DNA of 10,352 bases, from IMG/VR virus record IMGVR_UViG_2695420596_000008, positions 1-10,352 of that record; one strand, 5' to 3'. The DNA comes from a virus. Its lineage: Duplodnaviria > Heunggongvirae > Uroviricota > Caudoviricetes. This document shows, piece after piece, positions 8,032 through 8,962 of this stretch. The notes under the pieces were generated by a model. It searched no databases. It saw only the letters and a list, made by a program, of their open reading frames with translations, and was not told where the DNA came from. A program made the translations under genes and the position numbers. The first letter of the stretch is position 1; each line of letters starts with the position of its first letter.

Positions 8032-8257
8032 TATGACTTGGGCGATTTCTGAACAATAAGCACGATTTAGCAATGATTAATTGATGTTAAGCACAAATAT
8101 CTCTACATCGTGCATTTTTAACTATTTATACACATAAAATCTAATAAATGGATATAAACCTTATGATGATTTTTCTCAATCGAATTGAATAATGATCTCT
8201 ATCACATCACCCAAACGTCTCTTCAGGCCACTGGTTACCAGCTATGTGACGATGAAG

Positions 8258-8962
8258 TCACGAACTTTTCAGCCACTCCCTTGCCTCGATGTCATCCAGA
8301 TGGCGAGATTGCTTCAGAATACCAGCCACATACTCCACCTTTGCTACTTGATGATAAGGCAACGTTATTGGCCTGTGGTCCTGGTTGATGCTTGTAAATT
8401 GGTATTCTCCATCTCTGTCATAGCCAAGAACTTTGATCATGTTGTGTCCTTCAACAGTTCTGACAAACACCTCATCCCCCGGGAATACTTTGGTGTTAGG
8501 CTCAATGAGTACATATTCTCCTGATTTTATTCTGGGCCACATGCTGTCTCCTTTCACACGAAGACCAAAGGCATCTGGATCATCGCTATAAATATTGAGC
8601 CACCCATCGCGCTCTTCGGTCATCTCGATGGCACCATCAACACCAAGAATTGCCTCACCAACCACGCGCACTAACCCTTTTCTTACCTGACCGACAAAAG
8701 TTAAAGAATCTGAGCATGATGCAATTGGTGTTACATCATGTACCAAATCAAGCCACCCATTAGGTAACCCAAGTGCGGCTTCGAATTTTCTTGCTAGTTT
8801 ATCCCCTATGTTTCGAGTGCTTTTTTCACCGGAGACTTGCGTGAGTTGAGAAGGGCTAACTCCAAGCTTATCGGCAAAGCTTGCATTAGTGTTACCCGCG
8901 ATTTTTTTATGCTCATCTAGCAAAAACGCCAGATTCGATTTGCGAATATCTTTGTTTTCCAT
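8258..8962 (-). CDS. cI: CI-like prophage repressor (N-terminal HTH, C-terminal LexA-like S24 autopeptidase domain), non-lambda immunity specificity
   Basis: 234 aa; HTH segment NASFADKLGVSPSQLTQV; S24 motif GDSMWPRIKSGEYVLIEP with downstream Lys; divergent from cro across an operator region; sequence is not lambda CI. Confidence 0.9.
   Translation of the reverse strand: MENKDIRKSNLAFLLDEHKKIAGNTNASFADKLGVSPSQLTQVSGEKSTRNIGDKLARKFEAALGLPNGWLDLVHDVTPIASCSDSLTFVGQVRKGLVRVVGEAILGVDGAIEMTEERDGWLNIYSDDPDAFGLRVKGDSMWPRIKSGEYVLIEPNTKVFPGDEVFVRTVEGHNMIKVLGYDRDGEYQFTSINQDHRPITLPYHQVAKVEYVAGILKQSRHLDDIEAREWLKSS

Follow-up and report, generated by a model that had tools for sequence, protein, structure and literature searches.

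Probable remnants of two earlier repressor genes behind an H-19B-type phage repressor, at a recurrent boundary between lambdoid immunity and accessory modules

Background

Directly behind the stop codon of a lambdoid prophage repressor lies a stretch of DNA that resembles the end of another repressor gene, cI of phage lambda. What is this stretch, how did it come to lie there, and does it have a function? The window (the whole stretch of DNA analysed, 10,352 nt of virus record IMGVR_UViG_2695420596_000008) is a lambdoid prophage segment; from the open reading frame (ORF) list and profile matches (N_peptide, S24) it carries int, xis, exo, bet, gam, kil, a P22-like N, the repressor, cro, cII and O. 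The O gene (9777-10352, plus strand) contains tandem IPQNEGGSPKMRD-type repeats; such repeats are typical of the ori iterons that O contains and are ordinary. The stretch behind the repressor has no annotation in RefSeq. From the repressor outwards, the features at this junction are as follows.

8258..8962, minus strand: CI repressor of the H-19B/BP-4795 type, complete; 234 aa, HTH and S24 peptidase domain, stop TGA at 8258-8260
8253..8257, minus strand: CTTCA, final bases of the 3' flank that belongs to the H-19B-type module itself
8234..8252, minus strand: fossil layer 1, 19 nt (tcgtcacatagctggtaac), 3' end including the TAA stop of a 245-aa repressor family; 17/19 ungapped
8207..8233, minus strand: fossil layer 2, last 8 codons (QWPEETFG) and TGA of a lambda-type cI, non-coding here; 27/28 to lambda over 8206-8233

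Results and discussion

The resident repressor and its tail

The resident repressor differs by one amino acid from the cI product of the Stx phage H-19B (AF034975). Residues 103-206 match Peptidase_S24 in Pfam (PF00717, E=3.8e-16), the translation contains KGDSMWP with the GDSM serine motif, and the PHROG match is phrog_4, transcriptional repressor. By these sequence features it is an S24 (LexA/CI-type) phage repressor, and autocleavage is predicted. The gene is intact.

The first-pass annotation regarded the C-terminal tail KQSRHLDDIEAREWLKSS as an extra piece of 19 aa, possibly due to a small insertion. The tail has 18 residues, and its distribution contradicts an insertion. Homologues of 50-98% identity in Klebsiella, Salmonella, Edwardsiella, Aeromonas, Serratia, Pectobacterium and others keep it (VAGILKQSRHLDDxEAxEW..); their C-termini continue after VAGI as VAGILKxSRHxDD... 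or VSAIVKHTRYVD... Among 74 H-19B-type alleles, which were found by an anchor within the gene and are therefore an unbiased sample for presence of the remnant, 61 have the remnant and 13 lack it; the tail is present in those 13 too. Since it is common to distant homologues and to remnant-less alleles, the tail is a native feature of the family and not an insertion. The same annotation asked whether related alleles read through to QWPEETFG; none of the 120 homologues listed does. The H-19B-type gene end together with the remnant is found in 476 of 5,426 complete E. coli genomes, EDL933 included.

A lambda-type cI end behind the stop codon

On the minus strand, translation continued in frame past the repressor TGA yields LHRHIAGNQWPEETFG and a stop, as the first-pass annotation had stated (codons at 8257-8210, stop TGA at 8209-8207). 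The codons are CTT CAT CGT CAC ATA GCT GGT AAC CAG TGG CCT GAA GAG ACG TTT GGG TGA; lambda CI (NC_001416) ends in ...VVGKVIASQWPEETFG. The 23 bp said to be shared with the lambda cI 3' end are indeed shared: the 23-mer CAGTGGCCTGAAGAGACGTTTGG (8211-8233) is identical in NC_001416, and the BLAST alignment covers 8206-8233 at 27/28. A chance origin is ruled out by shuffling, as none of 200 shuffled windows matches the 23-mer with three mismatches allowed. Nor does the match result from gene-wide homology, because the best BLASTP segment between the resident repressor and lambda CI has 33% identity over 55 aa. In its identity, its position and its lost coding constraint (see below), the stretch is a non-coding relic of a lambda-type cI 3' end.

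Layer 2 is located between the repressor and the cassette that follows it, at the end of the repressor slot and the start of the rex slot, and bounds the cassette slot on the right. H-19B shares this remnant exactly and departs from the window 3 nt past the remnant stop, with a breakpoint at ~8203/8204. On the repressor side, 'tgacttca' is also present in the remnant-less alleles L132, L144, L160 and L175, which then diverge. The aligned sequences place the founding junction with the older remnants between 8253 and 8252, and this junction is common to all 61 remnant-bearing H-19B-type loci.

A second layer and stacked gene ends

The 19 nt of layer 1 match the end of a 245-aa repressor family, which finishes in ...IIGRVFWSSHSW (FWSSHSW, then stop), tcgtctcatagttggtaa. 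A 17/19 match at a fixed position has a chance probability of ~6e-9 (binomial estimate). In L019, L041, L099 and L106 the 245-aa repressor end is coding and directly adjoins the lambda block, which is itself a remnant there; window positions 8206-8252 match L041 by BLAST. L166 keeps layer 1 and diverges directly after the TAA.

Read in the frame of the resident repressor, layer 1 gives the residues HIAGN. The motif IA..QWPEETFG had been taken as a whole for the end of lambda CI. This is correct for QWPEETFG; the IA derives from the 245-aa repressor 3' end. Because layer 1 matches that end at 17/19, HIAGN is the end of that gene read in another frame and not lambda VIAS. An alignment of IAGN with lambda VIAS by eye was rejected; it reaches only 7/9 with a 3-nt gap, compared with 17/19 ungapped to the 245-aa repressor end.

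Lambda itself contains a layer of this kind. The cI-rexA spacer (L002, NC_001416, minus strand, ~37190-37226, directly 3' of the cI stop) starts with ATCGGCAAGGTGTTCTGGTCGGCGCATAGCTGA (IGKVFWSAHS, then stop), and layer 1 matches this copy at 16/19. Judged by its sequence, the start of the spacer is a reciprocal fossil, a non-coding copy of the 245-aa repressor C-terminus in the reference phage. Behind a P22-c2-like repressor in L113, up to four gene-end fossils are stacked.

A mini-cassette of 87 bp, coding for a 23-aa hydrophobic peptide (MREYLIVGVVTLLSVVAIVLMVA, then stop), lies between 23-nt and 21-nt direct copies of the block in L033 (7542-7651) and also in L097 and L113. In Winslowiella arboricola, a full-length QWPEETFG repressor is followed by a degenerate copy of '...AAGLGQWPEETFG' (L215, 5620-5642), and a second, intact 'AAGLGQWPEETFG' remnant is found ~2.7 kb away on the same contig (L216, 2952-2974). 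A similar 'DEAGLAQWPEETFG' remnant is present in Serratia (L186). The Winslowiella and Serratia remnants hint at a further donor family.

The QWPEETFG block as a recurrent boundary

The QWPEETFG block was followed through 169 loci, which combine a scan of viral contigs for the 23-mer with the H-19B-type sample. The loci from the scan were chosen by exact block match and the loci are not phylogenetically independent; consequently, the counts given here and the Fisher test below are indicative only. The block is the true coding C-terminus of two families, the lambda-type repressors (~60 loci) and a 215-aa family ending in ...IIGKVVKAQWPEETFG (~13 loci). Behind at least six other S24 repressor classes it is non-coding, with stop offsets of -3, -4, -11/-98, -27, -32/-34 and -49 nt. 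Only 2 of ~8 remnant offsets are in frame with the repressor, which is chance level.

On the cassette side, 47 downstream classes start either at the wobble position of the final Gly codon or at the stop codon, TGA or TAA. The 8 repressor classes and 47 downstream classes occur in 70 combinations, and 18 of the 47 cassette classes occur with more than one repressor class; 70 combinations for 47 cassette classes require at least ~23 exchanges through the block. H-19B-type repressors are paired with 20 cassette classes despite their single founding junction. In many phages, the block is the sole sequence common to unrelated repressors on one side and unrelated cassettes on the other. It has the properties of a boundary or linker sequence: unrelated flanks share it, and the same modules occur in differing combinations across it. 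We infer that the crossovers took place inside the block, because it is the only shared sequence.

The junction had been proposed to mark the place where the immunity cassette was swapped. That it is a recombination junction is borne out by the divergence of H-19B 3 nt past the stop and by the dozens of downstream modules. The notion of a single swap falls short; the layered gene ends indicate at least two successive replacements stacked at the junction, and a site that has been re-used many times.

The block, altered by no more than 1-2 synonymous changes, is also found in Pantoea, Mixta, Serratia, Enterobacter, Citrobacter, Winslowiella and Aeromonas. In the scan of genome contigs, more than half of the matches were lambda contamination of unrelated assemblies and were set aside. 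Lambda cI and its spacer matched, wherever compared, in contigs (many of them short and of low coverage) of Limosilactobacillus, Vibrio, Fusobacterium, Helicobacter, Kitasatospora, Desulfovibrio and others (L183, L184, L189, L191-L195, L197, L198, L200, L204-L207, L209-L213, L217, L219-L222, L224, L225). These contigs of unrelated species are most likely lambda DNA contamination.

Constraint on coding and non-coding copies

The remnant varies more than the gene beside it. In the 61 H-19B-type loci, segregating sites per site amount to 0.25 and 0.48 in the remnant layers versus 0.09-0.11 in adjacent cI, and pi is 0.05-0.07 in the remnant layers versus 0.015-0.02 in adjacent cI. Seven of the 61 remnants are damaged (W to stop, stop loss, E to K, EE to KK, E to D, G to W). 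Among 121 lambda-type coding copies, which were sampled without reference to the block, one is damaged (G to E); the others show only synonymous CAA and CCA variants. The difference between 7/61 and 1/121 has a Fisher p of 0.002, which is indicative only as the loci are not independent. The remnant is not conserved as protein, and its decay argues against both stop-codon readthrough and a sequence-specific element. RNA folding over 8190-8275 gave no unusual structure (z=-0.35).

Identity in the block extends as far as the wobble position of its final Gly codon or the TGA or TAA stop, which is the limit of coding constraint. Between distant coding families, ~70-100% of codons in the block are identical versus ~40-50% in the rest of the gene, in a comparison of only 7 codons from partly selected loci; excess synonymous conservation of the block between these families is suggestive but not decisive. 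This codon identity and the presence of the remnant in 61 of 74 H-19B-type alleles could also mean that there is selection on the DNA itself.

The cassette slot and its terminator

Downstream of layer 2, the window contains a cassette and a terminator.

7466..8203, minus strand: accessory cassette in the lambda rexAB position, two co-oriented ORFs; homology to H-19B begins at 8204
7627-7989, minus strand: cassette ORF, 120 aa, PHROG match phrog_13858 (function unassigned)
7483-7611, minus strand: cassette ORF, 42 aa, PHROG match phrog_12503 (function unassigned)
7434-7465, minus strand: t_imm-like intrinsic terminator, 10-bp G+C stem and U tract; fold -16.9 kcal/mol, z=-2.5

Pfam, NCBIfam and PADLOC gave zero matches for the two cassette ORFs. 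A sigma-70-like promoter-like site is located at 8020-7992, just upstream of the first of them. The same cassette is found behind a lambda-type cI in L122 (99.9% identity over 7423-8237, stopping at 8237) and behind the 245-aa repressor in L019, which brings it to three repressor classes in all.

The terminator lies within a left-hand conserved linker, 7420-7463. A simple terminator scan did not flag the hairpin; it was detected by folding. From its sequence it is read as a t_imm-type terminator, which would end the repressor-cassette (immunity) transcript and close the slot. Against lambda, only two parts of the window match, 8206-8233 and 7344-7463; the latter shares 86% identity with lambda 35712-35826, which lies directly below rexB. 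Loci that carry other cassettes match the window only at 7420-7462 and 8206-8252. A similar linker is found 345-2091 nt downstream of the block in 118 of the 169 loci. In an enlarged set, the linker is present in 162 loci, giving 31 cassette classes of 629-1607 nt with all ORFs co-oriented with the repressor. The cargo of these classes (loci L003-L257) includes BstA (E=1e-105), a KilA-N/BstA-like protein, the PADLOC candidate systems (PDC) PDC-M63B, PDC-M24B and PDC-M66B, and NYN, SDH-type protease, P63C and ParA-like proteins. Block and terminator bracket the rexAB-equivalent slot.

Proposed history and mechanism

The 51 nt after the repressor stop are best explained as non-coding leftovers from two previous occupants of the slot. 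A lambda-type cI ending in QWPEETFG and stop would have been replaced by a 245-aa repressor, with its last 8 codons left behind; the 245-aa repressor would then have been replaced by the H-19B-type repressor, with its last 19 nt left behind. We infer this order of replacements by parsimony. The founding joints would have been illegitimate, each putting a new repressor gene before the tip of the old one. Taken together, it is likely that the lambda-like stretch is the decaying debris of two earlier repressors and now serves as a passive homology patch for module exchange.

Under this model, the block would have no role in gene expression and would simply provide 25-50 bp of homology. A crossover in the block, catalysed by phage Red or host RecA, would be paired with another one, either in the terminator linker or on the right-hand side of cro; such pairs would transfer cassettes from one immunity type to another and immunity genes from phage to phage. 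The genes for phage Red (exo, bet and gam) are present in the window, and the minimum homology for Red-beta is quoted as ~30 bp (De Paepe 2014, PMC3945230). Coding copies in lambda-type repressors may act as reservoir and source, held intact by selection on the protein, while remnant copies may decay and then be refreshed by exchange. A coding reservoir would account for the sharp limit of identity at the final wobble base and the stop codon. One point against the patch is its size: 23-28 bp is at the lower limit of homology reported for Red/RecA recombination.

A broader proposal, which we regard as unlikely, is that block and t_imm terminator are maintained as universal 'adapter arms' that connect at least 8 repressor families in Enterobacterales and Aeromonas to one common cassette pool. 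If true, all lambdoid prophages could reach this pool (rexAB, BstA, PADLOC candidates and dozens of uncharacterised cassettes) via homologous recombination over ~25-45 bp. The slot would then resemble an integron that works without a recombinase, its arms being maintained either through second-order selection or through cassettes that take their arms along as they spread.

Alternative explanations

The strongest competitor to debris is a functional cis-element (RNA structure, processing site or protein-binding site) that lies at the end of the immunity transcript and is for this reason retained behind any repressor. Such an element would fit the occurrence of the block behind many unrelated repressors and across several genera with few synonymous changes, as well as its retention in 61/74 H-19B-type alleles. 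It is nevertheless improbable: the remnant is more polymorphic than neighbouring coding DNA and its substitutions are scattered, 13/74 H-19B-type alleles lack it, its RNA fold is ordinary (z=-0.35), and conservation ends exactly where coding constraint ends. Polymorphism also bears on leaky UGA readthrough, which would produce a minor repressor isoform extended by W/LHRHIAGNQWPEETFG and restore a lambda-like C-terminus. The remnant is in frame with its own stop codon and the context is TGA-C, a weak terminator context in E. coli. Against this, 7/61 loci have nonsense, stop-loss or non-conservative changes in the extension, half of the extension is another gene in the wrong frame, and the other repressor classes are mostly out of frame (the 2 of ~8 in-frame offsets being chance level). 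The extension is thus kept neither as protein nor in frame across relatives, and readthrough is extremely unlikely.

An equally faint prospect is that the ancestral H-19B-type repressor ended in ...VAGxQWPEETFG and that its present tail and stop arose through a small insertion or duplication. There is a superficial likeness between the VAGI that precedes the tail and the IAGN that precedes QWPEETFG; however, the tail is kept in distant homologues and in remnant-less alleles, the QWPEETFG end occurs in 0 of the 120 homologues listed, and IAGN is accounted for by the 245-aa repressor 3' end at 17/19. Finally, the cassettes might be inserted by a site-specific recombinase or homing-type enzyme that recognises the block, instead of by general homologous recombination. 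All cassettes start at the same base, and the block copies of 23 nt and 21 nt around the 87-bp mini-cassette (L033, L097, L113) look like a target duplication. Yet no recombinase accompanies the 31 cassette classes examined, the sharp boundary is an ORF end, flanking repeats also arise from unequal homologous exchange, and the left boundary is a different sequence, the terminator; an enzyme of this type is very unlikely.

Comparison with known systems

Read as gene-end debris that now offers a patch of homology, the junction is a clean instance of a known principle; both boundary sequences and the hotspot in which it lies have been described. A search of the accessible literature found neither the string 'QWPEETFG' nor any report that the block is a fossil following heteroimmune repressors, that such fossils are stacked, or that lambda holds a reciprocal one. 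The junction goes unmentioned in Fagerlund 2022 and in the 2022 co-transfer paper.

'Linker' sequences at the module boundaries of lambdoid phages were described by Susskind & Botstein 1978 and by Clark et al. 2001 for HK620, as summarised in Pope et al. 2011 (PMC3029335). Like the block, they are short conserved sequences at a module boundary with unrelated flanks, and their many flank combinations imply homologous exchange. What sets the block apart is that its source can be named: it is the coding 3' tip belonging to one repressor family and persists as a fossil behind others, and several such tips are stacked. At most mosaic boundaries no linker can be identified (Pope et al. 2011, PMC3029335). 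This relates to an old argument: whether phage mosaics arise through homologous exchange at short linkers or through illegitimate joining followed by selection, clear linkers being rarely identifiable. The junction shows both processes together. Its unique founding joints, which leave gene-tip fossils, point to illegitimate events; re-use of the same 23-50 bp block behind many repressors and before many cassettes points to homologous ones.

The cI-N interval is known as a 'hotspot of mosaic diversity' holding rexAB or bstA, according to Owen 2021 (PMC8585504), citing Degnan et al. 2007. The slot is the same, with accessory or abortive-infection genes (rexAB, bstA) downstream of the repressor and co-transcribed with it, and BstA cassettes are also present in the slot of the loci examined here. 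Accounts of the hotspot, as far as their accessible portions go, describe the variable content and not a QWPEETFG remnant behind heteroimmune repressors. The block fixes the exact right-hand edge of this repressor-adjacent defence-gene hotspot; block and terminator together are a simple sequence handle with which to mine defence and accessory cassettes.

Rad52-like recombinases carry out relaxed homologous recombination between lambda and defective prophages (De Paepe et al. 2014, PMC3945230). As in the exchange proposed here, Red-beta acts on short or diverged homology to generate mosaics, and the window encodes exo, bet and gam. The exchanges of De Paepe et al. were measured in homologies of hundreds of bp, whereas use of a 23-50 bp patch is deduced from natural variants only. 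The junction is a ready experimental substrate for asking how little homology Red or RecA needs in nature.

By analogy, the slot also resembles integron attC arrays: it has one promoter-proximal site, many alternative co-oriented cassettes and recurring short boundaries. It differs from them in having no integrase, attC structure or arrays; it is bounded by the tip of a gene on one side and a terminator on the other, and exchange presumably proceeds by general recombination.
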